Both the position numbers and the translations under genes were made by a program. Below, in pieces: positions 5,184 to 30,412 of a stretch of 64,000 nucleotides of DNA. The DNA is from Naegleria gruberi (Eukaryota), in the NCBI GenBank assembly GCA_000004985.1, contig GG738869.1; one strand, given 5' to 3'. The notes beneath the pieces are model-generated. The model was not told the DNA's origin. It searched no databases and saw only the letters and a list, made by a program, of their open reading frames with translations. Positions within the stretch are counted from its first letter, which is position 1. Every line of letters starts with the position of its first letter.

Positions 5184-6410
5184 CTAGTCCACTTCTGGTA
5201 CTTCCTCTTTTTCTTCTTGTTTCTGTGTGTCTGATTCAGTATCTTCATATTGCTCTTCGTTATTTTCATCCTTGTTGGTTTCTTCCTTTTTACTTTCTGG
5301 CGTTTCATGCTTACTGATTTGGATACCAGCCATAAGCTTACTAATATCACTCATCATAGGCATTTGCATAGCTGTTTGAGGTGGGATGTTCATTTGTGGT
5401 GGAGGTGTACCACTAGGTATCGTTGGTTGTCTGAACATTGCAAATGGATTTCCTTGCATTCCTTGTAAGAATGGTGAAGCAAATCTTCCAACTTCTCCCA
5501 TCATTCTATTCATCATTCTTTCTTCCCAATGTTTCATTCTTTCATCAACACATTCATTAATATAATTCTTCAAATCTTCCTTGGATTTAAATTCATTCAA
5601 GAGTATTGGATTTTCTGGAATATCGTTCAATGTTTCCATTTTAGGAGGTAAAGTTGGTTTAGGCATTTCTTGTTCAACCTTCCTCTCGGAAGCCACATTA
5701 TCAATGGTTTTTGTGATTGGCATTATTTGACCTACTATCATACTCATTTGCTTAGCTGTTGGATTATTCATTCCATTCATTAAATTCATTAACATTCTAG
5801 GATCGCTCATTAGTGCACTCATAGCTCCAGAAAATTGTTTCGATTCAGTTTCTCCTCCCATTGCTATCGACTGATTTTGATTCAATAATTTTTCTCCCCT
5901 TCTTTTACCATGAAAAATTATAGCAGAGACACAAATTTTTGTCTGTTTAGCAATTCTATCAGGATAATCCAATGATAAGAATTTCAAAGTAAAATTTGAA
6001 TGTCTCTGAATCTTCCTCTCACTCTGATTACTATCCAAACATACACAATTATACTGATAGGCATTATCCTCTCCAATCTTTTCAGTAAATCTACAAGTTT
6101 GTCCATATTCCTTTTCCTTAGAAGTATACAATTCCACAGTCCTAGCAGTACTAAAAATATCAATACTCGTCCATTCAATCATATAATCAAATTCTATCGT
6201 CAATTCAAAATACTTTTCATCATCAACTTTTTCAAAAACAACAAAGCCTCTCTTTTCTTGATTTTTTTCATAATCTTCAATATCATCGGTATGAATTAAT
6301 TTTCCAAATAATTCTGTAGGCTCGGAAGAAAATTGCCAATTTGCCTTCACATTCGGAAGAGAAGGAGGAGGGCAGACTAACGGTTCACCATCATTTGCAT
6401 TTTCTGTCAT
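5184..6410 (-). CDS. Hypothetical protein, Met/Gln/Pro-rich C-terminal half, acidic tail
   Basis: 408-aa ORF whose ATG is preceded by an A-run (aaaaaaaaATG on the minus strand). No family recognised by eye. Confidence 0.55.
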   Translation of the reverse strand: MTENANDGEPLVCPPPSLPNVKANWQFSSEPTELFGKLIHTDDIEDYEKNQEKRGFVVFEKVDDEKYFELTIEFDYMIEWTSIDIFSTARTVELYTSKEKEYGQTCRFTEKIGEDNAYQYNCVCLDSNQSERKIQRHSNFTLKFLSLDYPDRIAKQTKICVSAIIFHGKRRGEKLLNQNQSIAMGGETESKQFSGAMSALMSDPRMLMNLMNGMNNPTAKQMSMIVGQIMPITKTIDNVASERKVEQEMPKPTLPPKMETLNDIPENPILLNEFKSKEDLKNYINECVDERMKHWEERMMNRMMGEVGRFASPFLQGMQGNPFAMFRQPTIPSGTPPPQMNIPPQTAMQMPMMSDISKLMAGIQISKHETPESKKEETNKDENNEEQYEDTESDTQKQEEKEEVPEVD

Positions 6411-6687
6411 TTTTTTTTAATAATAATAATATATTAATATTAATTCGATATATTTAATTAAGATTATTAATGGATACTGGGAGGTACATGTAAATTATAA
6501 TTATTATTACATCTTATTCTTTTTTAATTCAAATATAATGAGGTTACATCGACCAAAATCTCACAAATTCAATCAACGAATTTCCATAATGTTCCAGCGA
6601 CATTTGAAGTCTTGATTACAATTTCCATTCCGTTTATTGTCATCTTCCAAATTGAAACTCCAACGTTCTGCAGCATACTACAAAAAA

Positions 6688-8304
6688 ATGGGTCAAGGAC
6701 AAGGTCTATCCGCCTCTGATTCTGATGTTCTATTCGAAGAATCTGAATCACAAGAACAACAATATCAGAAAGTAATCTCTGCACAAGAGATGGCAAAATA
6801 TGTACGTACAATGTGTTATGTTCTATATCTCTCTAATTATAATTTATATTACGATATAGCAAAAAGTGATCAAGTCAAAATTGTCGGAATTAACTTGTTT
6901 CGGTAGCATTCCACCACTTGTTTTGAATGATTTGCTTTCGAATCTATTCCTGAAAGACTCTATAAAAAAGTATTACCTCTCATCTACACCTGAAGGTACC
7001 ATTGAATATGTAGGTTTTATTGTCATCATTTCCAAATATTTATTAATGTATATTACATGAAAATAACAAAATGATGATAATAATTGTGTGTTTTATTCCG
7101 ACTGATTATGATGATGCTCATTACGATGATTAAATGGAACTTGACTGGCGTACAATGATGTTCTTCAAAAATGACGTACGACACGCTATTTTGGATCATG
7201 ATTTGATGTGGAAATTTTTAATGCGGCTATTTGGAATCAAACTATTTGGCTATTATTCTAAACTACGTGAAATAATCAAATAGTTGGGAAGTTTGTTGAC
7301 AATTTACGAAACCAACGATAAAAATCAACACAATTTCTATCGTAATGTAAAATTGAATCAATATGTGACGGAAATGAATGAAAGGCAAAAGATTCCACAC
7401 GATAAAATTTTAAAAGTGAGATTAGTTTTGATTCAGACACCCAAAGACTATTCTACTTTGAATTTATTTGATTTACTTTCACCAGTTTTGGATAATTTTT
7501 CAGGGCTCTCTCCATCCCAAGCTTTTAATTTAGCCAATAATGAGGAAAATTTTGAAAATCAACCAATTACAGATGTTCAATTAACACCTGCAATTGCTAT
7601 TGGACCATTTTTGTTATATTATAATTCATTAGGTAAGTTTCAGTTGAATTCAAACTAATAGTTTGTTATTAATAGGTCTTGTAATTCCTAAAAGAGTTGT
7701 TGGCGAAGCATCATTTATTCTTTCAGAAATTGATCCATTTGCTTGTATATATTTAAATGATGAAACTCTCCATCGGTTGTCAACCATAGTTTTTGATTGG
7801 AATATCACTGCGAGATACTCTGTACAAACCAATAATTCACAACATTTTGTTGATTCACTGGCTACTCTATTCAAAATTTCATTGGTTGATAATCCAACAC
7901 TTGCTGAATATTTAAAATCTGTGAGATCGAACGGAATTGGTGATTGCACAATACCTTTCTCTGAAGCATTTAGGGAACAGTTCAAAGTTAAGAAAACTGA
8001 AAAAACATTCACAGATAGAAATGAGCTTTTGACTTTTACTTCCAAATTGGCTCAACGTAAATTTTCCAAAGAATCATTTCCAAACGAATGGAAATTATTC
8101 CACAATTTTGAAAGAATGTTTTGGAGTGAAATGATCCAGAGAGAGAAATACTATTTACTTGCTCATAAAGCAAAGGAAATCAAACGGAGCAGTGTGGACA
8201 ATCCAACAAGACACTCCATCTCAACCTCGACCATTGAAGAGAATATCTTTGGAGATGGAACCAAACTTTTTGCAAAATTACCAACTGTTCATGATTGGTT
8301 TTAA
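6688..8304 (+). CDS. Four-exon gene, 413 aa: MGQGQG N-terminus (possible N-myristoylation) and a C-terminal NlpC/P60-superfamily (LRAT/PLAAT- or PPPDE-like) signature with Ser replacing the nucleophile Cys
   Basis: Exons 6688..6801, 6860..7009, 7284..7632 and 7676..8304; total 1242 nt, in frame. Introns: 6802..6859 (GTACGT..ATAG), 7010..7283 (GTAGGT..ATAG, 274 nt, AG-free) and 7633..7675 (GTAAGT..ATAG). The motif RYSVQTNNSQHFVDSL at 7816-7851 resembles YSLLWNNCEHFV / NCNHF. The exon 2 to exon 3 junction is the least certain. Confidence 0.5.
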
Positions 8305-8478
8305 ATTATAATTTGCTTCATCATACATGTAATAAAAATTTAAGGATCTGTTTGTGATAATGAAATTCAATTCAATCGAGATCTTTAAAGATTCTCATAT
8401 TGAAAAACTTCAAGTTCATGACCTCTACCAAAATAAGAAAATTATTGTAAAATCAACAAGAAAACAAAATTAAAAAAA

Positions 8479-15214: not shown

Positions 15215-16875
15215 TTATTGTTCCATTTCTTCATCCTCAGGATCTTCTGAAAGATTAGATGGTTTAAAGATTGAATAGCCGTCAAGACTTGTTGTAATAA
15301 GCACATTTTGGAATTTTGGATGCCAGTGCACTTCCTTAATGTCAACTTGACCCATGTGTTCGAATAACAATTGTGGTGGGATTTCATTTCCGATTTCTTT
15401 TTCAATTTCTTCTTGTTCGGCATCTCTTTCGAGTGAGAGATCCCAAATTGTCACCTTATCAGAATCAGAAGCAGCCAATAACGTTGATTCAATTGGATTC
15501 CATTCTATTGATGTAATAGAATTCTTGTGATAAATAAATTGGCCAACTGGTTTCATAGGACTGCTATCAGAACATTGTCTGACGTCCCAAATACGAATAA
15601 CACCATCATCGTCACCACTTGCAATAAAGTAACTTGTGAGAGGATTCCAAGAAATAACGTTAACATCTGCCTTTTCACTAGCTTCAAAACTGAGAGCATG
15701 CTTTCTATTCTTTTTTCTTGTATCCCAGAATTTAATAGTTCTATCGCATGAACATGATGCAAACACACTGTCTTCACTTGGTGAGAATTGAAGATCCTCA
15801 ACACTTCCTGTATGTCCAACAAATGGTTTATCATAAATTCTCTTCCAAGTATGAACTCCACTATTTGTTTGCATATCCATAACGTTAATTTCACCATTAC
15901 AATCACCAGTAGCAAGTCTACCTTCCACACACTTCGACCAGTCCATAGCAAAACCTTCAGTAGTATGGAAATCGAAAGTTTGAATTGCCTTCTTACTCTT
16001 TGTAATAGATTTTAAGGAACTGGCCATATTTTCTTGTCTTAAAACTTGTGACATTTGTGTCAAGTCATAAATGTGAACCTTAGAGTCCTCACACCAAAAA
16101 CCAACAATATTTCTATTTTGTGGCATTGCTCTTACTCTATTAACATTACCAGTGATTGGAATAGTTTGGTATTCAAGTGATGGTTCATCATCCAAATTTT
16201 CATTATCATCATCTTCATCTTCAACGTCACTTTCATCTGAATCGTAACGTGTTTTGTACATATCGTAAGCTTTAATCATGTAACAATTCTTTTGAGGAAC
16301 AGTTTCATCAGTTTGCACACCCACAACAAAATAACATGACAATGGATAATTCATAGTATCGAGTGGTTGTGAAACAATATCAAAACTCAAAGCAGGCCAT
16401 TCATTTCTGATTTTGTAATTAATTTCGTAGGCCTTATTTTGAAAAGTTAATTCGAATTCTCCATCATTGTAATTCTCTCCAGGACGATAAATATCGGCTT
16501 TGGAATTTATACCTTCTCTATACTTTTCGGCTTCTTCCTCCTCTTCAATATATTGTTTTTCACTGTTTTGTACTTTCAAATTTAATTCATCCATCTTTTG
16601 ACGAAGTTCGGTTTCATCTCCTTCAAATTCATATTCACCTTCATCTTCATCAACGTAGTCTTCCGAATTTTCATCGTATTCATCTTCATATGGATCGCCT
16701 CTACACAAAATTTAATCATCATCATCTATGAAACTAAAAAAACCTACGCTGCATATTCGGCTCTATCTTCATGGTCTGATTCTTCATCAGATGAGTCAAG
16801 ATGTCTGACCACTCTCGATTCATTCTTACTTCCAGAAAAAGTGGCTACTTTACTTCTCTTCTTTGCGCCTGGCAT
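15215..16875 (-). CDS. GRWD1: Glutamate-rich WD-repeat protein (GRWD1/Rrb1-type ribosome-biogenesis chaperone), 537 aa
   Basis: Exon 1 is 16748..16875 (MPGAKKRSKV...). A 47-nt intron at 16701..16747 (GTAGGT..TGTAG). Exon 2 is 15215..16700. Acidic N-terminus followed by WD40 repeats (FASCSCDRTIKFWD, IASGDDDGVIRIWD, LAASDSDKVTIWD). Confidence 0.85.
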
Positions 16876-17004
16876 TTTTTATTGTCTTGTTGACTTCAAC
16901 AATTTTTTTCAAACTTTCATCAACAAGGCTTGTTGGAAAAGTGAAGTAAAATGTTGAACAAGAATAAAAATTTAAAAAAATTGAAAACACTTTAAATTCA
17001 AAAA

Positions 17005-18012
17005 ATGGTGACTACCAATAACAACAAGGAAACATCGGTCGCTTCAACAGAGAAGAAGCCAGTTGCTGTGACTACCAACAAGATTAGACAAAAGTTAAAG
17101 CAAATGAACAAACAAACAAAATCAACGGTTACAAATAGTGATAGTACCAATTCTAAATTCCACAACAAACAAAGAACTTTGATTTTATCTTCACGAGGTA
17201 TTCATGCTAAACATAGACATTTATTGAAGGATCTTCGTACCTTGTTACCTCACACTAAAACCGAAAGTAAATTCTCTAAAGAAGGAATAGATGAAGGAGA
17301 TTTGGTTAAAAAACTTCACAGACTTCAAAAGATTGACCACATTGCTGCTGCTTTGAAATGTCCAAATATTTTGTACTTTGAAGTTGATAAGGAATCAGCA
17401 GATACAGAATTGTTTTTATGGATGTCAAAGACTTCAACTGGACCTTCTATGAGATTTAAAGTTGAAAATATCAGTACTATGAATGAATTGAATCTTATCG
17501 GAAATTGTTTGAAATATTCAAGACCATTATTACATTTCGACAAAACATTTGACAATATTGAAGGCGAAGATAAGCTTACTCATCTCCCATTGATTAAGGA
17601 ATTATTAACACAAACTTTCTCTACACCACTTAATCATCCAAAATCAAAACCATTCTTTGATCACATGTTTGCTTTCTATTATTTGGATGGAAGAGTTTGG
17701 TTCAGAAATTATCAAATTGTTACAAAACAATCAAGCCAAGGAGTTGCATTGACTGGTTCCCAAAAACATGAATATTCTCTTGTTGAAATTGGACCTAGAT
17801 TTGTTCTCAAGTTGACTAAGATTCTCAATGGTTCTTTCGATGGTAGAGTTATTTTCAATAGTGATTCACACTTTGTTTCAAAGGCTGAAGTTCAAAGATT
17901 GGAAAGCATTAAACTTGACCTCGACAAGCAAAAAAAGACTGAAAAACACAGAAAGTACTTAGAATTGAGAAAGCCAGCTGATGCTGATGAAGTGAGTTCT
18001 GTTTTCAATTAA
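17005..18012 (+). CDS. BRX1: Brix-domain ribosome biogenesis protein BRX1
   Basis: 335-aa ORF. RTLILSSRGIHAKHRHLLKDLRTLLPHTKTESKF, GPSMRFKVENISTMNELNLIGNCLKYSRPLLHFD and VWFRNYQI are Brix-domain (BRX1-type) signatures. Confidence 0.85.
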   Translation: MVTTNNNKETSVASTEKKPVAVTTNKIRQKLKQMNKQTKSTVTNSDSTNSKFHNKQRTLILSSRGIHAKHRHLLKDLRTLLPHTKTESKFSKEGIDEGDLVKKLHRLQKIDHIAAALKCPNILYFEVDKESADTELFLWMSKTSTGPSMRFKVENISTMNELNLIGNCLKYSRPLLHFDKTFDNIEGEDKLTHLPLIKELLTQTFSTPLNHPKSKPFFDHMFAFYYLDGRVWFRNYQIVTKQSSQGVALTGSQKHEYSLVEIGPRFVLKLTKILNGSFDGRVIFNSDSHFVSKAEVQRLESIKLDLDKQKKTEKHRKYLELRKPADADEVSSVFN

Positions 18013-18167
18013 AAGTTTTTTCAAAAAACTGCTGTACTGATTTTTTTCAATATTCCCTAAAGCTCCTCACCTAAAGCAATAATAAGGACTTTGTGAGCGG
18101 ATTTTGAATGATATTGGAGCAAAATTTGTCGTGCCCAACTCAATTTTCCATCACTACAAGATATTAA

Positions 18168-18182
18168 TCACCGCGTTTCATT
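18168..18182. repeat. Left copy of an inverted 15-mer (TCACCGCGTTTCATT) with patchy extension to about 18212
   Basis: It is the exact reverse complement of 27780-27794. Further blocks match inward (TTGCTT, TTGTAAA). Confidence 0.5.
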
Positions 18183-18828
18183 TTGCTTTTTGTAATAAAA
18201 GTTGTAAAGTTATGACGTTGGATAGCTTTATAGAAAAAAATACCATCACCAACTGACAAACCAAAAATTATTACCTCCCAACAATAATTAGTAACATCAC
18301 ATCCTACCTCGTCTCTTAGGTTGAGTTCTTTTATAAGAAAGTTCTTTTCATGTAGAGGTGTTTTATAATTATTCCAAAATTGAAGTAATTGTTTTACTAC
18401 GAGGTAAACTCACAACAAATTCTCAAGGAGATGATGTTGTGTTTTGGGATGTAATGTTTCTTATTATGTCAGAAAACATCTAGTAAGGAATGATTTATTT
18501 AGAAGAAGAACAACAACAATATTTAGAAGATATAAAACCATCACTGTGGGCTGATGATTTTCAGCAATAATTTAGAGAGACCAAACAAAAAATGATTTAA
18601 TATTGCAACATACAAACACACCACTTCAGCACCAACAGCAAGTAATCGTCTATGGAAAACTTCATCAAAGAGGGTCTCCTTTTTTTCATCACTAAATTCT
18701 ATTGATGAAGCATCATGACTATATCCGAGGATTGTGAAACAACAACCAACAGCAGGCTTTTACGATGATTCCGCACATTTGAATGAAGTATTAGTTTAGA
18801 TCAACTGGTACTGAAAAGGAGAAAAAGT

Positions 18829-21170
18829 ATGCTGCTTGTTTGGCTCCTACCTCATCACTTGCTGTTGCTTTTTGTTATTTACTCCTGAATGCGTTGCTAT
18901 CTTATATATGATTGTGATGTGTTTAATTAATAAGTTGGAGTGGGAGCAGCAACAGGGTAATAAATGTAAGTACCTACGATTTATTTGAAATTTTACCTTA
19001 ATTCCATTTCATAATTGACACCATGGAACATTTAAGGTGAAATCTTCACCAAAATAATAATTTGAAATAGTCAGTTTTGGAAAATGATGTCAGAGAATTT
19101 GATATTTATGAGTGTAATCTTTTCACATTTCAATTTGGTTGGTGCTATACATTCCATCATCAAGACTTAAGGTCCTGCCATTAATTAGAAACTGTGATGC
19201 AAGAAATAGTAACTGTTGTTGATGGAACTGTTTTAGAAGATTTAGCAAGTATTAATGTTGTCTACACAACAGCAACTGTTGCCATCTAAATCCTTACAAC
19301 TCTGAAGGTGAATTCATTTTGAAATATGATCCTCCAAGGGAAACTATGTTCATTCTCACTGATTAAAAGCTGATTTTACCGTTTGATTTGAGTGTAGACA
19401 TTTACAATAGATGATTCTCTTACACATACAGAGGTGAAAGAGATGCACTGATGATGTTCTTTCAACTCTTCAGTTTTGACTCAAGTCAAATTGTCTATTC
19501 AGTGGAAGGTATGGATGAGTTATCTATATAGTAGACACTTATAACTTTAGAATTAGAAAGCTATCAATTACCAATAAGACTATCATATTTATTACTTATC
19601 GGTGGACAAGAAGAAGGAAAACTTTGGAAATGAATATTACTGATACTCTTGCTCAACCAACAGGACTTGCTTTTTTCAGAATTCTGAACATGCTTCAATT
19701 AACACCATTCCATATACATTGCCTACAAGTTTTACATCAAGATTGTCAATGATCTTACAATAATTGCAAGATCTAGTGCTCCACCAACTCCAGGTCTGAG
19801 TTAGCAGCTCCTGTTCCTACTCTCAATACAACTATTGCCCCAACAAGTATTGCAGTTGGTGAGGATGGAAAAGTAACACACCCTCAAAATGTTAACACCT
19901 GCTCCAACCTGAACAATTTTTGTCGTGGCTAATACTGGATAATATCGGTCCTATTGAGGATGATGGCTTGGCTATTAGTTCTTCATTTATTACTGTTTCC
20001 TCTGAGGAGATTATTCTTGCTGATTGTATGAACAATAGAATTAGAAAGATTTGTGGAGAGGGAGTCATTACTACCAGTGGCTAATGCCTATGACTAAGAG
20101 AGATGTTTGAAAGTAATTGACCTAACCTTTCATTTTGCGTATTGTATGGAATGAAATGTCTCTAGTCAAAGAAGTGTTTTTGAGAATTGTGAATAGTGCT
20201 TCAGTGATCGTTTGGGCTCTTGTTGATGGTAAGGAAATGAGTAGAGATATCAAAAAGATTGCATATGATTTTGCCTTCTTTACTATTGATGTTTCACAAG
20301 TTTGCCAAGGAATTGTAGTCATTCAAGTTATGTTAATATTCGTAAAAAAATTGAGAAAATGACTCTTTGCCACCTTGCTGATTTTCGAAGTGGTTTCTCA
20401 GCACCAAACTTTCACATCATCATCTAAACATCAATTTAGTAGTAATATAGTAATTTTTATTGGAGTATTTTCTTCATTATTTTGGAATTTATCTTCATGA
20501 TGAAAAATCACAAGTTGATGAATCATCAGAACATTATTGTTGTTTTCCATCAATATAATAATTTTATTTGTGGAAATTAATATATAGTAATGAAATTACA
20601 CTAAAATCTTCATCACCGTTGGATTTAATGGAAAAGTTGGAAAACTATTAATGTGGCATTGTTGGAAATGGACAATAGTATGATATAAAACTTTGTTTGA
20701 TCACTTTTCATCAAGTATTGATAGAGATAGGTACATGTGAATTTTGAAAACTAACATGAACATTACTCCATGTGTACTTCAACCAACTTGAATACAATCT
20801 TATAGAACTACTAGTACTATTTAAATCACGAATAAACACCATATTCATCATCAAATATTCGTCATCTTGTCGATTACGGAATTTCATTCCACCAGTGTTG
20901 ATTCGGGCCCAACAACAAAATATTAACAATAAAACAATTACCAATACTATTGTTTACATGTTTTATGTTAAATGATCGTAACGATCATCAAGATCATCCT
21001 GTTTTTATTGCATTTCTCATGATAATCAGAAATGTCACAGAGAGTGCCACATATCCATTCTACTCTCAATAAATAATAGTTCCTTTTTACACATGTGCAA
21101 CTTTGCTTATAAACATGATGAATTCATATATTAAAGACTCCAAAGGCTAGTATAATCCTCAATGTGATGT
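18829..21170 (+). pseudogene. 5' arm of a decayed NHL-repeat receptor paralogue (related to the intact gene at 30615..34371)
   Basis: A signal-peptide-like MLLVWLLPHHLLLLFVIY starts at 18829 behind an A-rich context. Stop- and frameshift-interrupted NHL blades follow. 19519-19566 reads VIYIVDTYNFRIRKLS (intact gene: NIYFIDYYNYRLRKLS). A frame-shifted VDKKKENFGNE matches intact GDGKNENNGDG. 19971-20081 reads ADCMNNRIRKICGEGVITTSG followed by TAA. 20772-20975 contains IFIIKYSSSCRLRNF. The 3' limit is approximate. Confidence 0.65.
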
Positions 21171-21329
21171 CTAATAATACCATTACAACTTAAAGATAAT
21201 TATCTTATAATTTCATTGAATATGAATTGAATTTGTAAATTGACATAAAACAGTGGTTTATTGTAATTTGGTTTAAAAATAGCTTTCTAAAGCACCTTGT
21301 TGTATCTTGTTGTGACATTTACTAAAAAA

Positions 21330-22385
21330 ATGGCAAAAGCACCAGCACAAATTGTTATGGAGAACAAATTGCGGAAATCATTAACATTAAAACAATTCAT
21401 AGAATTATCCAAGTCTACAAGAAAAAGGAGATTAGATAATCTTCGTAAGAAATTCTTTAATTCAAATTTATTTAAATATTCTTGGAGTAAATGGCGAGAT
21501 GCTATTATCGGAACAAACAATTCAATCCAATATTTATTAAAACAAAGAAAAAACATAAAAAATAATTTATCAACATCTACAATTGATACAATAATTCAAC
21601 AATTAAAAGAGGAAAGGAACAAATCTACAAAAAAAGAATCCAAAAAAGATTTTGAAAAAAAAATTAATAATTTATTACAATCTAAAAATTTATTCAAAAT
21701 CAATGTTAATTTGATATTATGTAGTAATTTGGCTAATACTATTCAACTAATGTTTTTAAGAAATATACTTCCCGAAAATACCACTACTGAGGTAACCAAT
21801 ATATTGGATAAAATTAACCAAAGAAGATCAAAGGAAAATTATTATATAGGAAGTTGGGGAAAGAGTTCTTCTTTTCTATTTAAAACTAATGACACTATTT
21901 TTAATGAATTATCTTCTCAATTTATTAAAATTATTAATTTATTAAAAAATTATGTTTTGGAAATATTGAAATTTGGAAATAACAAGATGAGGAAATTCTT
22001 AGAAAAATACAATAGTAGTGATTTTTTATCAATTTATCCGACAGTGTGTTTTAATTTTTTGGATAAATCTGTAGATGAAAATAGAATTCTACATATTCAT
22101 CCGGATAAGGAAGACACTGGAACTAGTCTAATTTTTTACTTTGGAAAGTTTAAAGGTGGAGCAATCTCATTTCCTGAATTAAATTTTAAGCTTATGGTTC
22201 AATCAGCAGATGTTTTATTGTTTGATGGTAAGAATAATTTACATGCTGTTGAATCACTTCATGGTAAAGATGATGTTAGATATTCCGTTGTATTCTTTGC
22301 TCATAAAGCAGACTTGGGTAAAACTAGTTATCCCATGAATAGAGGAGAAGTTATGAAAGGTATTAAGAATAAAATCAATAATTAA
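21330..22385 (+). CDS. TET/JBP-family Fe(II)/2-oxoglutarate dioxygenase (NgTet-like 5-methylcytosine oxidase candidate), 351 aa
   Basis: The track start at 21297 is TTG; the true ATG is at 21330 (aaaaaaATG). The C-terminal core reads HIHPDKEDTGTSLIFYFGKFKGGAISFPELNFKLMVQSADVLLFDGKNNLHAVESLHGKDDVRYSVVFFAHK. It carries the HxD ... H ... R pattern of the double-stranded beta-helix. It parallels my recollection of Naegleria Tet1 (HKD...LFYFGNF...GDVLFF.G...H...R...VYFAHK). The N-terminal half is Lys/Asn-rich. Confidence 0.8.
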   Translation: MAKAPAQIVMENKLRKSLTLKQFIELSKSTRKRRLDNLRKKFFNSNLFKYSWSKWRDAIIGTNNSIQYLLKQRKNIKNNLSTSTIDTIIQQLKEERNKSTKKESKKDFEKKINNLLQSKNLFKINVNLILCSNLANTIQLMFLRNILPENTTTEVTNILDKINQRRSKENYYIGSWGKSSSFLFKTNDTIFNELSSQFIKIINLLKNYVLEILKFGNNKMRKFLEKYNSSDFLSIYPTVCFNFLDKSVDENRILHIHPDKEDTGTSLIFYFGKFKGGAISFPELNFKLMVQSADVLLFDGKNNLHAVESLHGKDDVRYSVVFFAHKADLGKTSYPMNRGEVMKGIKNKINN

Positions 22386-22439
22386 ATTTTAAATAATTAT
22401 TTAAATAATTTTTATAAATAATTTAATTGTATTAAAAAA

Positions 22440-23760
22440 ATGTCTCCACACTTTAACCTCGAATTTTATTCGAGAAGCACAACAGTAATAGATGAAAGCA
22501 CTCTCGGTGGGCTTGATTTGATAATAACACACTTATACATCCTCTTGTAGGAGTATAATTAGTGTTGTTGTTGTGAGTTGAGGACGTTATTTTAATTCCT
22601 TTTCCCTTCTTCCAAAGTTTCCTGTTCAAACTTTGTTGCTTCCGTAAATCATATTATCAACAGGAAAGATCATTTAACTGCGAGCATCGTTGTTGGATAC
22701 AAACTATGCATTGACAATTCTTTTAATTATCTTGAATGTTTGGTAATTGATGGCAATGTTCATATAATCAACTCTCACCAAAGAAGAATTCTAAAATATA
22801 TCTAATGATCAGGCTGTTGATTTTCAACAACATACAGGTATTCGGAGCTATTGTAAAATAATTGTTTTACTTTGATGATTCAAATGGTTTTCAACAACTA
22901 ACATAATTCTTATCCATCTTGCAAAAAAAGAGGATACCATGACAGCAATCAACTTATATCAATATTGAAAAATCATTAGGAAATTATTCAGAAGTAGCAT
23001 GCATTGTAATTGTTGCGTTCAAAACATTTCTCAACATTAAATTCTTTCTCCACAATCAAACCCTGCTCAGCAACAATCAGAAGAGGAGCCATCTTTTAAT
23101 CTAACTTGCCATCTATGTTGAAGGAATGTACATTTAGAAATCAGTGATGTTCACCCTGAATGTGATGGATCTTTTTCTGGCTACTTGTATTGGTTGCTCC
23201 AGTAATTGCACATATGGAGGCTCTTTTAATGTTTCCAATAACCAAACTATGCTGGTGATTCCACTCCCAACCAAAACCCTATCAAAAAGAATTCTTCTAT
23301 ACAACTAGTATGAGTCATAGAGCTGTTGTCTTTCGTCCACTTTTAATAATAATATATGGTATGCTTTTGTTCAGGCTGTAATGTTTCGAGTGCAATTCAA
23401 CACCAGTGTTTTCATTCCAACCATGATTGGATCATATCTCCAAAGAGGACACTGGGTATTATTACTATTTAAAGTTGGCTACTAATAGTGAAATCTACTT
23501 GTTCGATCCAATGTTGGATGCCAAGTTCACTAGTGCTGAGCTGGCTATTGATATTTCAGATATCCTTTTTGTTTGTTGTCACTACCACCCTATTATTCAA
23601 CTTCTAGGTTTACGTTTCAAGAATCATGGGTTTATTTGGTTTAAGATGTTATGTTTCAGTATTCACGTAAATATGATGCAAGGAGGACACTTATTGCTGC
23701 TGTGGTGGTAATAGTAGCATTACCTTAGGTGTTGTAGTGTATACTACTTCATCATCTATT
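22440..23760 (+). pseudogene. 3' arm of the same decayed NHL/EGF receptor paralogue
   Basis: 22506-22547 reads GGLDLIITHLYILL followed by TAG (intact gene: NLALIDHNLYILCD). 22740-22802 reads LVIDGNVHIINSHQRRILKYI followed by TAA (intact: GDFLITETNSHLVRRVSKG). 23158-23184 reads ECDGSFSGY, an EGF-like Cys repeat remnant. About 23690-23750 encodes a hydrophobic IAAVVVIVALPLGVVV-like transmembrane remnant. There are many in-frame stops. The order of remnants matches the intact gene. Confidence 0.6.
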
Positions 23761-24134
23761 AATACTTATTCTCCAATTACTCAAACAAAGACAATTTCAA
23801 TCAACATTCACTATGTCAGTGCTTAATTATTCCAAGTTGTACTAAAACAACATCACTAACAAGGTGCTAAACAACTATGCTTTCCATTTCAACGCAGAGG
23901 CATATGTCTTGCGTTTGGGGCAGAGATTTAGTGCTTGAATAGTGGTTAAACAACAATGGATGGGCATTTTGGCAACTGGTTTTCAGTAGCTTCACATTCA
24001 TGTTGTTTGACTTAACAAACACTTTGGCTGCAATCTATTCACTCTTTATCCATCATTTATTCATCATTTACACCAATACTGTATTGTTTACATTTTGTAT
24101 GCTAGCTGGTTATTATTATTAATCATTAAAAAAA

Positions 24135-26864
24135 ATGGGAGTAGCGACACTTTTTACCAAAGCTGACGTTTTAAATTCCCACAACATCAAAAAGCAAAAA
24201 GAAACCAAACGTCCTGCCTTTGAAGGTGATAATGATAGATCGATTGTGGCGGCAATTAAAAAAACAAAACAACAAGCATCCAACGACTTTGAGTATTACA
24301 AGACATACAAAGAAACAGATTTCACTAATGAACAGAATTTTAGTTCAATAATTTATCAGATAATGCTAGTTCTATTGCCCTATTTTGTTTTTAAAATAAC
24401 CTCAGGATTATTAGATTTTGAATCAATATTATTATACTTTCTAGTCTCCACAAAAAAAGGCAAAGATTTATTAGCACAAGCCAATCTATATAGTACTGAG
24501 GGTGTTTCTTGGTGTGAAGCAATAGTATTTAAAGCAATTTGTAATGCAGATATAAGTATAGGGAGTTATGGTAGATTTATTGGTTGTTTAGAAGAATCTA
24601 GTAAATCAGACACATCCAGAAATAAGAAAAAGGCAAGACATTTTTTACCATCACTCTCTACAATAACAAAATATTCAAGTAGTTTACATCAAGTATTAGA
24701 TATCAATCATGCTGCAGATAGCGAAGGACTTTATTGGAGAATATTTTGTTCATCCATAGAACTTAATGACAGGACATTCAGATATGCAACGCTTCAAAAT
24801 GCAGAATTGTTTTTATTCTCATTTATTCGCTACCATGAAATGATCATAGGAGAATATATCTTCTTTGTAAAGATAAGATGTACTGTTGATGGTTCACCTT
24901 TAGAGGGAGCCTGTACTGCGTATGATATTGTATTAATTCATCCCAAGATAGATCCATTTTGTGCTCGTAATTATATTTCTGTTATTATTGCCGAGCCTAA
25001 AGAGGAAATAGCGTTCAAATTAAACATCTGGGATTTCTCTCGCCAGTTAATGCGTATCACACAGTTGAAATACTCTGTACCTAATGAAGAAACAAGAATT
25101 ATTCCTGTAAAATTTATTACCAACCCTGATAAGGGCGCCTTTAACAAAATTATAGATGTGGAAAAGGTAACGCCAATTTGTGATCCTATTTTTAATTTGG
25201 TAAATCTTTATTGCCTATTATCAATGATTTTCAATACAGATAATTCCTTAATACTACCTCTAATTCCAACAATAAGAGGAGATTGTAATAATGATAGCAA
25301 CAAAGCAAAAGGACAAGCAAATCTAGCAAAGGTTATGGAAATTAAAAAGATTATGCCTGAAACGTTACCTTATTACCACAACATTCCAACAAAATCCCAA
25401 ATATTTACTGATTTTCAATTAGATGAAGATTCTATTTTTTTAATTGAAAAATTTATCATTAAGAAACCTCAAACAGATTATTTATGTTGTATGTTTTGTT
25501 ATTTAACTAAACAAACAAAAAGAATAGCATTGAAGTATCCTGATTTGTGTACATGGAAATGGTACAGATCAAACGAAAGCTCAAGTAATGCTTTAGGCTG
25601 GCCTTTTAAAAGTTTTTCATGGTGTCTTTCGCATGATATAAGAGCCTGTGGTCAGAATCTTATTGAAGAAGAGGTGGGACAAATTGAAGAAGATAGACAA
25701 TATTTTGCCAAATTATTCAGTTCTGAATCTCCAATTGCCTCTTTGAAATGTGGTTCTAAAAAGCTAATTAATGAACAACTAGATGCCAACCTTGTTTCTG
25801 AATTTGAGTTTTGTCAATGGAGTGTATTTGAATTAAAGGTGAAAGAAGAAAAAAAGAAAAACAAAACAGGAACAGAGCTACGAACTAGTTCAGTTAAACT
25901 AATCTATGATCAGATTTTGTTTAAACAAATAGACAAAATTATAATGACAATAGATGTTTGGTATCCTCATTGGCTCACATATCGAGAAAACAAACAATTA
26001 CAGGTTTGTCAATCCCTTAACAATAATCAATCATTTGAAGATTGTACAAATGAAGAACACTCCAAGCGAGGAACATACAAACCAAAAAACTATGAACATA
26101 TATGGAAAGCTCTTCAAAAAACATACATTACTCTTCGCCAACCAAAATCTAAATGGTTAGAATGGAAGAAAACTGGATATCAAGAGCCATTGCTAATATT
26201 TAAGAATTTAAATAAGGTTTGGATAAAAGATATTTTAGGAAGAATATCAGAATATTTACACATTCATCAACATGCAGATATTGTGTTCGATGAAGTAGAA
26301 GAATCATTCGTAACAACATCAAACATTGGATCTGAATCTAAAAATTCTTTAAGAAGGAAGCGTCATGTTTCATTTGGAGTTAATGGTGGTTTAAGACATC
26401 CTTGTGATGATTCTTTATATTATGACAGCAAAAGAATTCTTAATGAATTGAAGATCCTTGCTGAGACTCCTAATATTATTGCAAGACAAGATGAGATCAA
26501 AAGAAAACAAGTTTCCGAAAAAGAAAAACTCACACAACCAAAAAAGAAAAGAAAATCTGAAACTACTACACAACCCAATCCAATAAGCTCAACCAATTCC
26601 TCAATTAATTATATCAATCCTTCCCTATTACAACCTCTACTTCCAGATAATTTTAATTCAATTACATTACACAATCAACACTCCTTCTCACCTCCTATAT
26701 ATATTCATCCTCTTCAACTCCAACCTCCACTAACTAACAATTTAACATTTTCTCAATTCAATCCTTCTCAAAATTCCAATAACCAACCAACATCTCCTTA
26801 CCAACCATCATCTCCATTTTCATTCTTTTCATCCTCCAATCCATCACCAAACTCCTTTTTATAA
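24135..26864 (+). CDS. 909-aa protein with DDE-transposase-like motifs and a Cys cluster (candidate CACTA/Plavaka/KDZ-like transposase or domesticated derivative)
   Basis: Intact ORF with aaaaaaaATG context. IRCTVDGSPLEG (D252, nt 24888-24890) is followed by a hydrophobic strand and ..IIAEPKEE... This parallels the DG(F/V)xPF ... WPV ... IPGPK block of EnSpm/CACTA-type transposases as I recall it. Second acidic candidate: FITNPDKGAF (D332). Cys/His cluster: CCMFC...C...C..H....C at aa 451-505, followed by SHDIRACGQNLIEEE. The tail is low-complexity and Pro/Ser/Asn-rich. The family assignment is tentative. Confidence 0.4.
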   Translation: MGVATLFTKADVLNSHNIKKQKETKRPAFEGDNDRSIVAAIKKTKQQASNDFEYYKTYKETDFTNEQNFSSIIYQIMLVLLPYFVFKITSGLLDFESILLYFLVSTKKGKDLLAQANLYSTEGVSWCEAIVFKAICNADISIGSYGRFIGCLEESSKSDTSRNKKKARHFLPSLSTITKYSSSLHQVLDINHAADSEGLYWRIFCSSIELNDRTFRYATLQNAELFLFSFIRYHEMIIGEYIFFVKIRCTVDGSPLEGACTAYDIVLIHPKIDPFCARNYISVIIAEPKEEIAFKLNIWDFSRQLMRITQLKYSVPNEETRIIPVKFITNPDKGAFNKIIDVEKVTPICDPIFNLVNLYCLLSMIFNTDNSLILPLIPTIRGDCNNDSNKAKGQANLAKVMEIKKIMPETLPYYHNIPTKSQIFTDFQLDEDSIFLIEKFIIKKPQTDYLCCMFCYLTKQTKRIALKYPDLCTWKWYRSNESSSNALGWPFKSFSWCLSHDIRACGQNLIEEEVGQIEEDRQYFAKLFSSESPIASLKCGSKKLINEQLDANLVSEFEFCQWSVFELKVKEEKKKNKTGTELRTSSVKLIYDQILFKQIDKIIMTIDVWYPHWLTYRENKQLQVCQSLNNNQSFEDCTNEEHSKRGTYKPKNYEHIWKALQKTYITLRQPKSKWLEWKKTGYQEPLLIFKNLNKVWIKDILGRISEYLHIHQHADIVFDEVEESFVTTSNIGSESKNSLRRKRHVSFGVNGGLRHPCDDSLYYDSKRILNELKILAETPNIIARQDEIKRKQVSEKEKLTQPKKKRKSETTTQPNPISSTNSSINYINPSLLQPLLPDNFNSITLHNQHSFSPPIYIHPLQLQPPLTNNLTFSQFNPSQNSNNQPTSPYQPSSPFSFFSSSNPSPNSFL

Positions 26865-26897
26865 AATAAAAGGAATAATTTAAATTATAATAATTGT

Positions 26898-27659
26898 TTA
26901 ATATTTATTCCATTTAACAGATTCATCAAGCATAGAGCAGAAATAATCAAATTCAATTCTAATCATCTTCTCTTCAGGTTTGTAAATTAATTTAAATTGA
27001 TTAATTCCAAATTTCCATAAAATACCATCATGCTCCCATTTAAATGCATACCACTTATCACTAAACAAAGGAGGAAGGCTATAATTTCCAGCAAACAACC
27101 AATGATATGTTATCTTTGGAACTATTCTTCCTTCCCTTGCAATGCCACCCTCAATCAACATCTCTTCTTTTAAAATGCTATATGGTTTTGCCTTTTGTAT
27201 TTGATAATCAAAGAATAGCTTTGCTTCGTGATCATCTGTTACAGAAACATAATGTTGATGATGCCACTTGACATTATGGGTTGTATCTGGCTGAGCATTT
27301 CTAATAACTACCTCCTCAATAGTTCTCGGAAGTACCTTTAGGTATCTTGTTGCATAATATTCATCAGAATATTTTTCATCCATTATCTCACGCAGTGTTA
27401 TTGTTGGTAGGGAAGTATCAAAAAAGTATTCAAGTTGTTGTCTTTTCTCTAATGGTATGTTCACTTTCTTACTCTCTTCACTGCCTTCAAGAATGTTTGT
27501 TACTTGGCGTTTAGCTGTTTTCAAATCATCAACCTTCTCTACAACAAAACGTATTTTGTTTGTATTGTTATTCTTCTCCAACGATTTATTCATAGCTACC
27601 CTCTTACTTTTGCTCAACCTGTATACTTCAAACGTTACTTCTGTTTTGTTGGTGACCAT
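26898..27659 (-). CDS. Hypothetical protein (orphan), 253 aa
   Basis: Uninterrupted ORF with an ATG start; no recognisable motif. The Trp/aromatic-rich C-terminal half (WYAFKWEHDGILWKFGINQF) suggests a folded domain. Confidence 0.45.
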   Translation of the reverse strand: MVTNKTEVTFEVYRLSKSKRVAMNKSLEKNNNTNKIRFVVEKVDDLKTAKRQVTNILEGSEESKKVNIPLEKRQQLEYFFDTSLPTITLREIMDEKYSDEYYATRYLKVLPRTIEEVVIRNAQPDTTHNVKWHHQHYVSVTDDHEAKLFFDYQIQKAKPYSILKEEMLIEGGIAREGRIVPKITYHWLFAGNYSLPPLFSDKWYAFKWEHDGILWKFGINQFKLIYKPEEKMIRIEFDYFCSMLDESVKWNKY

Positions 27660-27779
27660 AGAAAATACTTGTTTGTTTTGTTTTGATTTTGTTGTTGCTC
27701 ATGTTGTTGTTGATATGTGGTGTTGTTGATGTTATTGTATTTTTTTTTACGTGAGTTTACAAATTGAAAAACAAGCAAG

Positions 27780-27794
27780 AATGAAACGCGGTGA
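27780..27794. repeat. Right copy of the inverted 15-mer (AATGAAACGCGGTGA) with patchy extension from about 27748
   Basis: It is the exact reverse complement of 18168-18182. It lies about 120-135 nt upstream of the minus-strand gene starting at 27659. Confidence 0.5.
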
Positions 27795-28045: not shown

Positions 28046-30412
28046 ATGGGAGGAGAAACTGAACCATCTAACGAAGCTCTAATATCACCAATTACACCTT
28101 TTTCAACCATTATTCCAAATACCTATTCTCAACAACAAGCTAATTTTGATTCAAGTACAATATCCGAAGAGAGGAATGATGGTGATAGTATCAATAGAGT
28201 TACCTCTCTTCCACCATTACCATCATTAGACTCTCCCAAGAAAAAACCTCTTCCATCCATTAACACTCTTTCTCCACCAAGAAAGACTTCAAAACCACTC
28301 CCACCAAGACCAACACAAACCTCTACGGAAATTAATAATTTAGTATTTTCTCATCCCTCTGCTATGAATACAACTTATTCTTCCGATAATTTTACCACCA
28401 ACAATCCATCCTATCCATCCACACCTCCAAAAGTTTTGTTCCGAGATTATACTGAGAATAATTTAGAGCCAGCTTCCAGTATTAATACATATAATTACGA
28501 GTTTGCAAATATAAACCCTGAACCAATATCACATATATTTACAAATGTAGATGGTAGTATGCACCGTAGTTCCTCCTTTGCGGGTACTTTGGTCAACAGA
28601 CGTTCAATTCCTTCGAATGTTGGTTTAAACTCTATACAGGAGGAAGCTATGATTCGTACTCAAAGTTATGACAAATTTAAATTGGACGAATTAAAGAAAC
28701 AAGGATCGACTGCTGCTGGCAATAATAACGGAAATAATAATAATAAGAGACATAAGAAAATATTTTATAATACTGAATTTTTGGAGAAATGCGGATTTAG
28801 TAATAATTCTATTGAACAGCAACAAATCAAACAACTGAAACAGGATGAACTTCAAGAGGAACAGATTCGTAGAATGCATTCTGAACAAGAACAAAAAATG
28901 AAGCAAATGGAATTAGAAGAGTTGGCTCTCGTCAACCGAACTTTACAACAAGAGTTCAGTTTTTCAGAATTTTTAACTTCTCAACCAAAATACTCATGGA
29001 GTGACTTTTTTGCCCATAACAAGAATGCATTTAGTTTAATCAGAGCTATGGCATCTCAATGGTCATGGGGAGAAATGACCTTGGGACTCGAATATTTTGC
29101 AAGAAGTAAGGGCAAGATGAAACGTGATTTTACTCAATTCAAATTAGAGTCAGATTTAGAGAGACTGCCAGCTTCAAACGTTGAGGTTTGGAGACATTAT
29201 GCACGTTTAACCTATCAAGTTTTTAGAGACTCGATAGAGGACATACCAAGGAACACCCGTTTGGAACTTCACAAAATTATTGCCTACGATAGAACTCAAC
29301 AAGCCATGAGACCTGGATATTTTCTGTGTGTGGACGACTATACAAAATCGGTTCTGGTTATTTTTAGAGGAACAAAATCATTTAGTGATATTCTGACTGA
29401 TTTGCACTGCTCCTCTATTCGTTACAAACATGGATATTGTCACAAAGGAATTTTGACAGCTGCTCAATATTTTGATTCGAACAAATTCATCAAGGAAGTG
29501 GTTAAAAGAACTCTTGAGCATCATCCAGGATACAAATTAAGGTTGCTGGGTCATAGCTTGGGTGGTGGTACTGCAGCTATATTGTCCACTATGTGGAAGA
29601 AAGACTTTCCTGATATTCACTGTTATGCATTTGCATGTCCACCAGTTTTATCACAAATTTTAGCTGACGAATGTGCTGACTATGTTACAAGTTTTGTAAA
29701 TGGTGATGATTTTGTAACAAGATTATCAATGACAGCTGTTCACGAATTGAGAAAGGAAGTACAGAACTATCCTTGGAAGGAGGAAATGATGAAAGATATT
29801 CAAAACTCAACACTTGGAAAGTTTGCAGCTGGAGTTAAAAATTATGCATCTGGTTTATTTAGTGGATTATTTGGAGGTAGTAAGAAGGCAGATGTAGTAG
29901 AGCCAATCATAGAAGTTAAAAAGGATGTAATCAAGACAGAACCTATCACCACAAACATTACAACAATAAGTACAGGAGAAGATGCCAAAAGAATTGAGTA
30001 CGATCAATCTAATTCATCGATGGAGGATCAAGATATTTCCAGTTCAAGTAATGCTGATGATGTGCAGAGTACAGATGAGCCTCTTTCCTCAATCTCACAA
30101 AGCACTAATGATGATGTTTTCCCTTCTTCAGGCTCAACTGTTAAAAGAAAAGTTTCCAAAAAACCAAAGAGGAACCCAGATTCTCCACTGATTATTAATG
30201 ATTATGAAAATCTTGTTGTGACTCTCTTCCCAGCTGGTTGTGTCTATCAAATTAGAAATATTGATGACACTGTGTACATAAAAAAGGCCAATAAGGAAGA
30301 CATTACTTCCATAATTTTGAGTGACAGCTACAAGGAAGATCACAGAATGATCAACTATTTATGTAATCTTGATGCTTACAATCCAATAACAACCGAGAGT
30401 AGTGTAATATAA
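28046..30412 (+). CDS. Class 3 (fungal-type / DAG-lipase-like) lipase with a long disordered N-terminus
   Basis: 788-aa ORF. FRGTKSFSDILTDL ... LLGHSLGGGTAAIL (GxSxG nucleophile elbow) ... FVNGDDFVTRLS are lipase_3 signatures. Confidence 0.8.
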   Translation: MGGETEPSNEALISPITPFSTIIPNTYSQQQANFDSSTISEERNDGDSINRVTSLPPLPSLDSPKKKPLPSINTLSPPRKTSKPLPPRPTQTSTEINNLVFSHPSAMNTTYSSDNFTTNNPSYPSTPPKVLFRDYTENNLEPASSINTYNYEFANINPEPISHIFTNVDGSMHRSSSFAGTLVNRRSIPSNVGLNSIQEEAMIRTQSYDKFKLDELKKQGSTAAGNNNGNNNNKRHKKIFYNTEFLEKCGFSNNSIEQQQIKQLKQDELQEEQIRRMHSEQEQKMKQMELEELALVNRTLQQEFSFSEFLTSQPKYSWSDFFAHNKNAFSLIRAMASQWSWGEMTLGLEYFARSKGKMKRDFTQFKLESDLERLPASNVEVWRHYARLTYQVFRDSIEDIPRNTRLELHKIIAYDRTQQAMRPGYFLCVDDYTKSVLVIFRGTKSFSDILTDLHCSSIRYKHGYCHKGILTAAQYFDSNKFIKEVVKRTLEHHPGYKLRLLGHSLGGGTAAILSTMWKKDFPDIHCYAFACPPVLSQILADECADYVTSFVNGDDFVTRLSMTAVHELRKEVQNYPWKEEMMKDIQNSTLGKFAAGVKNYASGLFSGLFGGSKKADVVEPIIEVKKDVIKTEPITTNITTISTGEDAKRIEYDQSNSSMEDQDISSSSNADDVQSTDEPLSSISQSTNDDVFPSSGSTVKRKVSKKPKRNPDSPLIINDYENLVVTLFPAGCVYQIRNIDDTVYIKKANKEDITSIILSDSYKEDHRMINYLCNLDAYNPITTESSVI

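Follow-up and report, generated by a model that had tools for sequence, protein, structure and literature searches.

The subject of this analysis is a block of 9.6 kb in a 64,000-nucleotide stretch of Naegleria gruberi contig GG738869.1, referred to below as the window. The block, at positions 18168–27794, is probably a copy, possibly rearranged and by now immobile, of a cut-and-paste DNA transposon that was encountered only in amoebae of the Heterolobosea (Naegleria and Willaertia). It encodes a TET/JBP dioxygenase (21330–22385), a 909-residue protein termed T909 (24135–26864), which is a candidate transposase, and a 253-residue protein termed o253 (26898–27659). All three open reading frames (ORFs) had been delimited in a first-pass annotation made from the letters alone, and are borne out by ORF calls. 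That annotation had further suggested that a TET gene is partnered by a DDE transposase in a heterolobosean, in the manner of fungal KDZ/Plavaka-type transposons. The partnership is supported by what follows, but the KDZ assignment is not; T909 is instead CMCT/Transib-like, and the CMCT clade itself includes Plavaka (PMC12730594).

The T909 family was found only in Heterolobosea, as judged by protein and contig searches. An exhaustive HMMER search of 1.84 billion representative proteins recovered seven relatives; the named ones belong to N. fowleri, N. lovaniensis and Willaertia magna, and the rest are short metagenome fragments. Scans of metagenomes and viral contigs, IMG/VR included, returned no relatives of T909 or of the W. 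magna protein P0010. T909 had no match in Pfam, in a phmmer search of PDB, in a profile search or in a word-indexed protein search, the last of which failed to return even its own sequence. The public N. gruberi proteome thus lacks this gene, and surveys based on annotation would have missed the element. Exact-protein look-ups of window ORFs in public collections likewise returned no record, the 909-residue product included.

Mobility of the family is seen in W. magna. Two loci, L003 (9004–14248) and L004 (7789–13190), are 98.5–99% identical between unrelated flanks, and represent a dispersed 5.2-kb repeat carrying homologues of o253 and T909. The 72 substitutions that separate them show an even distribution across the coding and the non-coding parts, and the transposase gene of L004 has a 1-bp frameshift. 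A third copy, at locus L005, is decayed, having lost the N-terminal half of the protein as well as a His pair described below. Comparison of these copies shows the T909 family to be mobile in W. magna. The homologues in N. fowleri and N. lovaniensis belong to separate clusters at 50% identity, and their genomic surroundings are unrelated. T909 is thus no single-copy host gene held in synteny, a possibility that the first-pass annotation had raised against its own proposal; its relatives occupy unrelated loci in all three species and dispersed ones in W. magna.

A related environmental contig, L006 (ENA ERZ929261, PRJEB11402, k127_390420; 957 bp), is 86–96% identical to four pieces of the window: 23862–24030 (matched by L006 1–182), 25942–26020, 26149–26485 and 26621–26924. 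It lacks 24031–25941, and with it most of T909, has a filler of ~100 bp of unmatched origin in its place, and contains a stop codon. L006 could represent the same locus in a related Naegleria, as a derivative or allele with an internal deletion, or else be an artefact of assembly; unless it is the latter, T909 is dispensable in a close relative.

These observations bear on the view that the cluster has been domesticated, with T909 and o253, perhaps together with the TET gene, being host genes at a fixed, immobile locus whose flanking 15-mers are coincidental. Such a view would account for three ORFs that are intact with their catalytic motifs preserved, for the recovery, at 50% clustering, of no more than one relative of T909 from each Naegleria species, for the acquisition of Zn2Cys6 DNA-binding clusters by the N. 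lovaniensis homologue, and for a locus with no target-site duplication (TSD) and terminal inverted repeats (TIRs) of at most 15 bp. It is nevertheless quite unlikely, given that identity between the homologues of N. fowleri and N. lovaniensis is below 50% and that their loci are non-syntenic, that the W. magna copies are young and dispersed, one being frameshifted and one decayed, and that the environmental relative L006 is devoid of most of T909. The public N. gruberi proteome, having no entry for T909, gives no copy number for it.

Two further observations concern the family in other Naegleria species. The public 468-residue model of N. fowleri FDP41_009065 (L002 11380–11800) ends before the catalytic Glu, while 'VDTECIH...SMNGG' continues in another frame just downstream, probably reflecting a missed intron or a frameshift. 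In N. lovaniensis, RepeatModeler labelled 38 repeats 'CMC-EnSpm' (PMC6125883), and Repbase may therefore list related elements already.

The W. magna repeat also reveals the extent of a complete element. Its left end, set independently by the repeat boundary, starts CACGGGGTGGTC. An inverted copy of CACGGGGTGGT is present at L003 17026–17037 (11/11 positions, then one mismatch; right end ACCACCCCGTG), directly after a 357-residue TET homologue at 15884–16957. When the downstream 10 kb of L003 was shuffled, only 1 of 5000 shuffles contained such a terminal match, and similarity over the subterminal 50 bp was also significant (3/5000 shuffles). The matched termini thus define L003 9004–17037 as an 8,034-bp TIR-bounded unit containing o253, T909, passenger ORFs and TET. 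The TET gene lies between the TIRs (9004 and 17037) in W. magna, as the window TET gene lies between the 15-mers. If the two genes travel together, as the first-pass annotation reasoned, TET paralogues should adjoin T909 homologues elsewhere, and this W. magna unit provides such a case.

Between the transposase and TET genes of L003 (12602–14148) are three passenger ORFs of 150, 286 and 86 residues, which have no Pfam match and are common to L004. Unrelated passenger ORFs are common in CACTA-type elements.

Several features of these loci weigh against a TET-bearing transposon. Gene order differs, being TET–T909–o253 in N. gruberi, with o253 reversed, and o253–T909–...–TET in W. magna. L004 is truncated on the right and lacks the right terminus and the TET end, and no TET gene lies near the T909 homologues at the N. 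fowleri and N. lovaniensis loci. The flanks of the W. magna element (ctatt/CAC...GTG/tttca) provide at best a 2-bp TT duplication. The two element-borne TET proteins share 29% identity, and the window TET is marginally nearer to NgTet1 (86 bits) than to its W. magna L003 counterpart; co-inheritance of the cargo is therefore not established. In the reverse comparison, the W. magna L003 TET scores 75 bits against the window TET and 43 bits against NgTet1, and is thus nearer to the former. When the surroundings of the N. fowleri, N. lovaniensis, L004 and L005 copies were scanned for TIRs, no candidate exceeded the chance level.

Taken at their strongest, the low identity of the two TETs and the lack of TET near T909 homologues in N. 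fowleri, N. lovaniensis and W. magna L004 and L005 would make TET and T909 unrelated neighbours in both species. Chance adjacency of this kind is very improbable: the same three gene families occur within 8–10 kb in two genera, and the W. magna TET gene sits inside statistically supported termini.

The TET/JBP identity proposed for the window gene is upheld by a match to the NgTet1 structures (PDB 4LT5 and 5CG8) at E ~3e-21, in which the HxD motif (H-P-D), the distal H and the R that binds 2-oxoglutarate (2OG) are aligned. Pfam Tet_JBP (PF12851) matches at E 3.3e-5 and 23.6 bits, under the gathering cut-off of 34.9. On the strength of these alignments the gene is an intact TET/JBP dioxygenase and an NgTet1 paralogue. 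The public model NAEGRDRAFT_79850 (211 residues), which carries PF12851, corresponds to the first 60% of the 351-residue ORF at 100% identity; this confirms the heterolobosean source guessed in the first-pass annotation, and the public model is truncated as judged from the ORF. Window TET and NgTet1 share species, family and 31% identity over ~205 residues, with Fe(II)/2OG-binding residues aligned. In contrast to NgTet1, the window paralogue has a basic N-terminal extension of ~110 residues, sits inside a candidate element and has an activity that is predicted only. Metagenome and viral-contig (IMG/VR) scans contained no relatives of it.

A further gene at L005 (13006–15078; W. magna JBEGDK010000169.1) encodes a 690-residue protein matching Pfam TAGT, the TET-associated glycosyltransferase family, at 32.5 bits against a gathering threshold of 27.5. 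It lies ~2 kb downstream of the decayed T909 copy, with a mitochondrial-carrier gene between them, and could hint at further base modification, namely glycosylation of hydroxymethyl bases, in Willaertia.

T909 has a conserved motif series consisting of DG.P (D252), NPD.G (D332), C452-x2-C455 followed by YP.L..WKW.R, C.AH (C497/H500), DY.HI..H (H709...H713), SES (E734) and NGG (NGG750), together with a KKKRK stretch resembling a nuclear localisation signal. D252, D332 and E734 are kept in every family member that covers them. The His pair is H709-x3-H713 in T909 and H-x4-H in W. magna and N. fowleri; the decayed L005 copy alone has lost it. The resulting arrangement, D...D...C-x2-C...H-x3/4-H...E, is the published signature of the CMCT clade (EnSpm/CACTA, Mirage, Chapaev, Transib, Plavaka, ESTA, Lanisha and RAG1), whose members have 5'-CA..TG-3' termini and TSDs of 2–5 bp (PMC12730594). 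Ends of the CMCT type, 5'-CA...TG-3', are present in the window as CACCGCG...CGCGGTG.

The structural evidence points in the same direction. Structures of Transib and RAG1 (PDB 6PQN, 4WWX and 6B40) are the best, reproducible and family-specific match to low-confidence models of T909. With the motif layout, this reproducible top match makes a Transib/RAG1-type DDE fold the best reading of T909, conditional on those models. Alignment of the family profile to mouse RAG1 with hhalign, using the chain sequence of PDB 4WWX, gave a sole alignment, which places H937, H942 and E962 of RAG1 on the HxH...E of T909; at a probability of 0.3% it serves as a non-significant pointer.

Other results count against the fold assignment. 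Zn_clus aside, no member of the T909 family has any Pfam match at E<=10, and PDB sequence and profile searches linked T909 to neither RAG1 nor Transib. Neither of the two AlphaFold2 models, which differ in construct and in alignment, is a confident one (pLDDT 47.8 and 52.2), and Foldseek found nothing significant for T909 in PDB, several of the weak matches being RNase-H-type by our reading.

T909 shares with Transib, RAG1 and RAG1L the order D, D, CxxC, HxxxxH, E, a His pair 21–25 residues before the Glu and termini that start with CAC. The convergent, tail-to-tail arrangement of o253 and T909 in N. gruberi, with 34 bp between them, is like that of RAG2 and RAG1, although o253 has no similarity to RAG2. 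The Transib superfamily is said to have been defined by Kapitonov and Jurka in 2005 on a 5-bp TSD and a CACGGTG-like heptamer. Terminal heptamers of the Transib/RAG type are CACGGTG or CACAGTG, whereas those of the window and W. magna elements are CACCGCG and CACGGGG, and neither element is flanked by a 5-bp duplication. The distance from the second Asp to CxxC is ~120 residues in T909 compared to 19 in RAG1, and neither sequence nor profile searches gave a significant match. The data therefore do not support placing T909 in Transib proper, for want of sequence similarity and a 5-bp TSD and on account of that spacing. A KDZ transposase was also considered, KDZ elements being DNA transposons known to carry TET/JBP genes. 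It was rejected, as T909 has no Pfam KDZ or CxC match and its motif layout and fold fit CMCT/Transib; TSDs of Zisupton, moreover, are 8 bp (PMC12730594).

The third gene, o253, had been called an orphan, but it has homologues in W. magna and N. lovaniensis. In W. magna, tblastn placed them immediately upstream of the T909 homologues of L003 and L004; ORF translations and alignment revealed a shorter one (L005 8284–8682) upstream of the decayed copy. In N. lovaniensis, the T909 homologue itself includes an o253-like region within its N-terminal portion; o253 is thus fused to the transposase homologue in this species, whereas N. gruberi and W. magna encode it separately. Gene fusion and repeated adjacency suggest that o253 is a functional partner of the transposase. 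It has no Pfam or PDB match. A chromodomain-like identity, seen by eye, was discarded after hhalign gave a probability of 0.2% and PDB no match. The N. lovaniensis fusion itself (C9374_012882, L001 10001–13765; 1159 residues) comprises the o253-like region, two fungal-type Zn2Cys6 clusters, proline-rich repeats and the transposase core, and may be a domesticated or retargeted version.

The layout of the N. gruberi block and its flanks is as follows.

17005–18012, plus strand: flanking host gene with a Brix domain, outside the element (Pfam Brix, E 1.4e-41)
18168–18182, plus strand: left TIR candidate, T/CACCGCGTTTCATT; exact inverted 15-mer, best CAC/GTG-anchored pair around T909
18183–21329, no strand: ORF-free interior of 3.1 kb, decayed or non-coding cargo; ORF gap, origin not matched
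21330–22385 (ORF from 21297), plus strand: TET/JBP dioxygenase gene, intact, 351 residues from the ATG (PDB 5CG8/4LT5 match)
22386–24134, no strand: ORF-free interior of 1.75 kb, of which 23862–24030 is conserved in a related environmental contig (L006 match)
24135–26864, plus strand: T909, 909 residues, candidate Transib/RAG1-fold DDE transposase (motifs, fold comparison)
26898–27659, minus strand: o253, 253 residues, putative accessory gene of the element (homologues adjoining or fused to T909 homologues)
27780–27794, minus strand: right TIR candidate, AATGAAACGCGGTG/A; exact inverted 15-mer
28046–30412, plus strand: flanking host gene, class 3 lipase, outside the element (Pfam Lipase_3, E 1.1e-21)

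The inverted 15-mer reported at the two ends is exact (TCACCGCGTTTCATT at 18168–18182 and AATGAAACGCGGTGA at 27780–27794) and reads CAC...GTG. It lies 156 bp past the Brix stop codon on the left and 251 bp upstream of the lipase ATG on the right. Deletion of 18168–27794 would thus leave a Brix–lipase spacer of 156+251 bp (~400 bp), a normal intergenic distance for this genome. All 10,502 CAC/GTG pairs that bracket T909 within 10 kb were scored and ranked by matches in 20 nucleotides, and the 15-mer, with an exact run of 14 bases, was the best of them; across the six sequences scanned, the longest run among the other top-listed pairs was 10 or less. The chance expectation is ~0.007, as a rough estimate. 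From these properties we infer that the 15-mers mark the exact ends of the block in N. gruberi.

As evidence of termini, the 15-mer is weakened by several results. On its own it is unremarkable, since ~12 distinct pairs of exact inverted 15-mers occur in the 64 kb, which is the chance level; the TIR would be only 14–15 bp long, and its inward extension is not significant, the same score being reached in 910 of 5000 shuffles. The TSDs about which the first-pass annotation had asked were not seen: comparison of one complete copy per species gave the 2-bp TT of W. magna at best, and none at the block ends (ttaat/CAC...GTG/aaatt) unless these are moved by a single base. No empty site and no second N. 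gruberi copy came to light either, although no eukaryote genome was searched for them. Some 5 kb of the block interior is unexplained decayed sequence. No subterminal repeat motifs were found.

The number of chance 15-mers and the lack of a significant inward extension leave room for different limits, in which the mobile unit is smaller (TET–T909–o253, or T909–o253), the 15-mer is fortuitous and 18.2–21.3 kb is unrelated, decayed host DNA. This region indeed lacks homology to any related locus, and the W. magna unit is 8.0 kb compared to the 9.6 kb of the N. gruberi block. A smaller unit is unlikely, although it deserves weight. The 15-mer is anchored by CAC...GTG, as the family predicts, besides being the best of its 10,502 pairs, and its copies lie in both flanking intergenic spacers, such that its removal would return the spacer to a normal length; unrelated passenger ORFs occur in the W. 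magna element as well. A third, degenerate terminus was sought at 21.2 kb (inverted repeat I9) and set aside, its alignment score of 28 being within background noise.

The limits preferred here, at the two 15-mers, enclose most of the sequence devoid of ORFs around the TET gene. Counting ATG-initiated ORFs of at least 100 residues, the gap at 18013–21329 (3.3 kb) is the largest in the window and that at 22386–24134 (1.75 kb) the third largest; the two flank the TET gene. The description of this region as the only ORF-poor stretch goes too far, since 6411–8478 is likewise free of such ORFs. The decayed receptor gene said to surround the TET gene could not be confirmed, as stop-masked translations of 18.4–21.3 kb and 22.4–24.1 kb had no Pfam matches, and no paralogue turned up in the window. 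Remnants resembling NHL repeats, such as 'IVDTYNFRIRKL' and 'ILADCMNNRIRKI', were noted in the ORF-free stretches by eye only. The interval 18183–21329 is without homology to related loci and without tRNA or Rfam matches, and no remnants of T909, o253 or TET occur elsewhere in the window.

It could also be supposed that the block is an endogenised fragment of giant-virus type and no transposon at all, since N. gruberi carries methylated viral insertions (PMC12344493) and some genes of the block lack wider homologues. This is the least credible of the alternatives. The window is AT-rich (GC 31–36%) and the GC content of the block is that of the host; no viral hallmark genes are present, IMG/VR contains no relatives of T909 or the window TET, and the transposase fold and TIRs point elsewhere.

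For a transposon, the following mechanism can be proposed. T909 would be a DDE enzyme with an RNase-H-like core, whose C-x2-C and H-x3/4-H reside in a large insertion that separates the second Asp from the Glu. By analogy with RAG1 and Transib, the CxxC and HxxxH residues of this insertion domain may bind zinc. Like Transib, RAG1 and CACTA enzymes, T909 would then recognise the CAC...GTG termini, and excise and reinsert the element. The gene fusion and adjacency described above are consistent with o253 acting as an accessory partner of the transposase, either DNA-binding or regulatory. TET would be cargo that oxidises 5-methylcytosine (5mC), or thymine, thereby countering DNMT1-dependent 5mC on repeats and relieving silencing of the element. 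In N. gruberi, DNMT1-dependent 5mC sits preferentially on repeats and transposable elements, while 5-hydroxymethylcytosine has not been detected (PMC12344493), the latter speaking against such a role.

TET-bearing DNA transposons are an established phenomenon in fungi, and were reportedly described there by Iyer et al. in 2014. A survey from 2025 recognised 11 transposon lineages among them (Kojima 2025, PMC12730594). The fungal TET-bearing CMCT transposons (Plavaka, ESTA and fungal EnSpm) resemble the present element in having CAC...GTG termini and a TET/JBP cargo together with an extra protein of unassigned role, and ESTA is likewise tied to RAG1 by remote-homology methods only. In contrast, the host here is a discoban amoeba, T909 has no Pfam similarity to the fungal transposases, the TET is of the NgTet type, and one TET-bearing copy was seen per species; TSDs are TA in ESTA and 3 bp in EnSpm, while none was resolved here. 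In the literature searched, which did not extend to Iyer et al. (2009, 2013, 2014) or Pais et al. (2015), there were no TET-bearing transposons outside fungi and no papers linking Naegleria Tet-like genes to transposons. The finding is rated as a probable TET-bearing DNA transposon from a eukaryotic supergroup new to such elements; its transposase lineage can be placed only by fold and motif comparison.

A broader proposal, that heteroloboseans harbour an unrecognised and deeply divergent lineage of Transib/RAG1-fold transposons with its own subunit, o253, and TET dioxygenases, is put forward tentatively, as slightly more doubtful than not. Were it true, the alliance between TET and transposons would be no fungal peculiarity, having arisen independently, or anciently, in Discoba, and Naegleria Tet-like paralogues, the NgTet1 family included, may have spread as cargo that counters DNMT1-based silencing. 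A heterolobosean case would show that mobile elements have repeatedly recruited 5mC oxidases across eukaryotes in which 5mC silences repeats. A transposon-borne TET offers a testable hypothesis for the in vivo role of at least one of the N. gruberi Tet-like paralogues. The RAG1/Transib-type fold would also be extended to Discoba, in a family invisible to Pfam, which bears on the age and spread of the lineage ancestral to V(D)J recombination.

Some minor features of these loci remain to be recorded. Within the N. gruberi block, an AT-rich 12-bp tandem or palindromic array (22387–22424) directly follows the TET stop codon, and a 28-bp tandem repeat of 2.3 copies (27678–27738) is situated between the start of o253 and the right TIR candidate. 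In W. magna, ~1.5 kb past the right end of the element, L003 18543–21763 contains two adjacent genes with SprT-like domains, one of which also has Chromo and HMG-box domains. Outside the block, an exact 18-base inverted match links a minus-strand site near 5.85 kb (5844–5861) to 28046–28063, where it spans the ATG and opening codons of the lipase (ATGGGAGGAGAAACTGAA, MGGETE); two genes may share an identical N-terminal hexapeptide.

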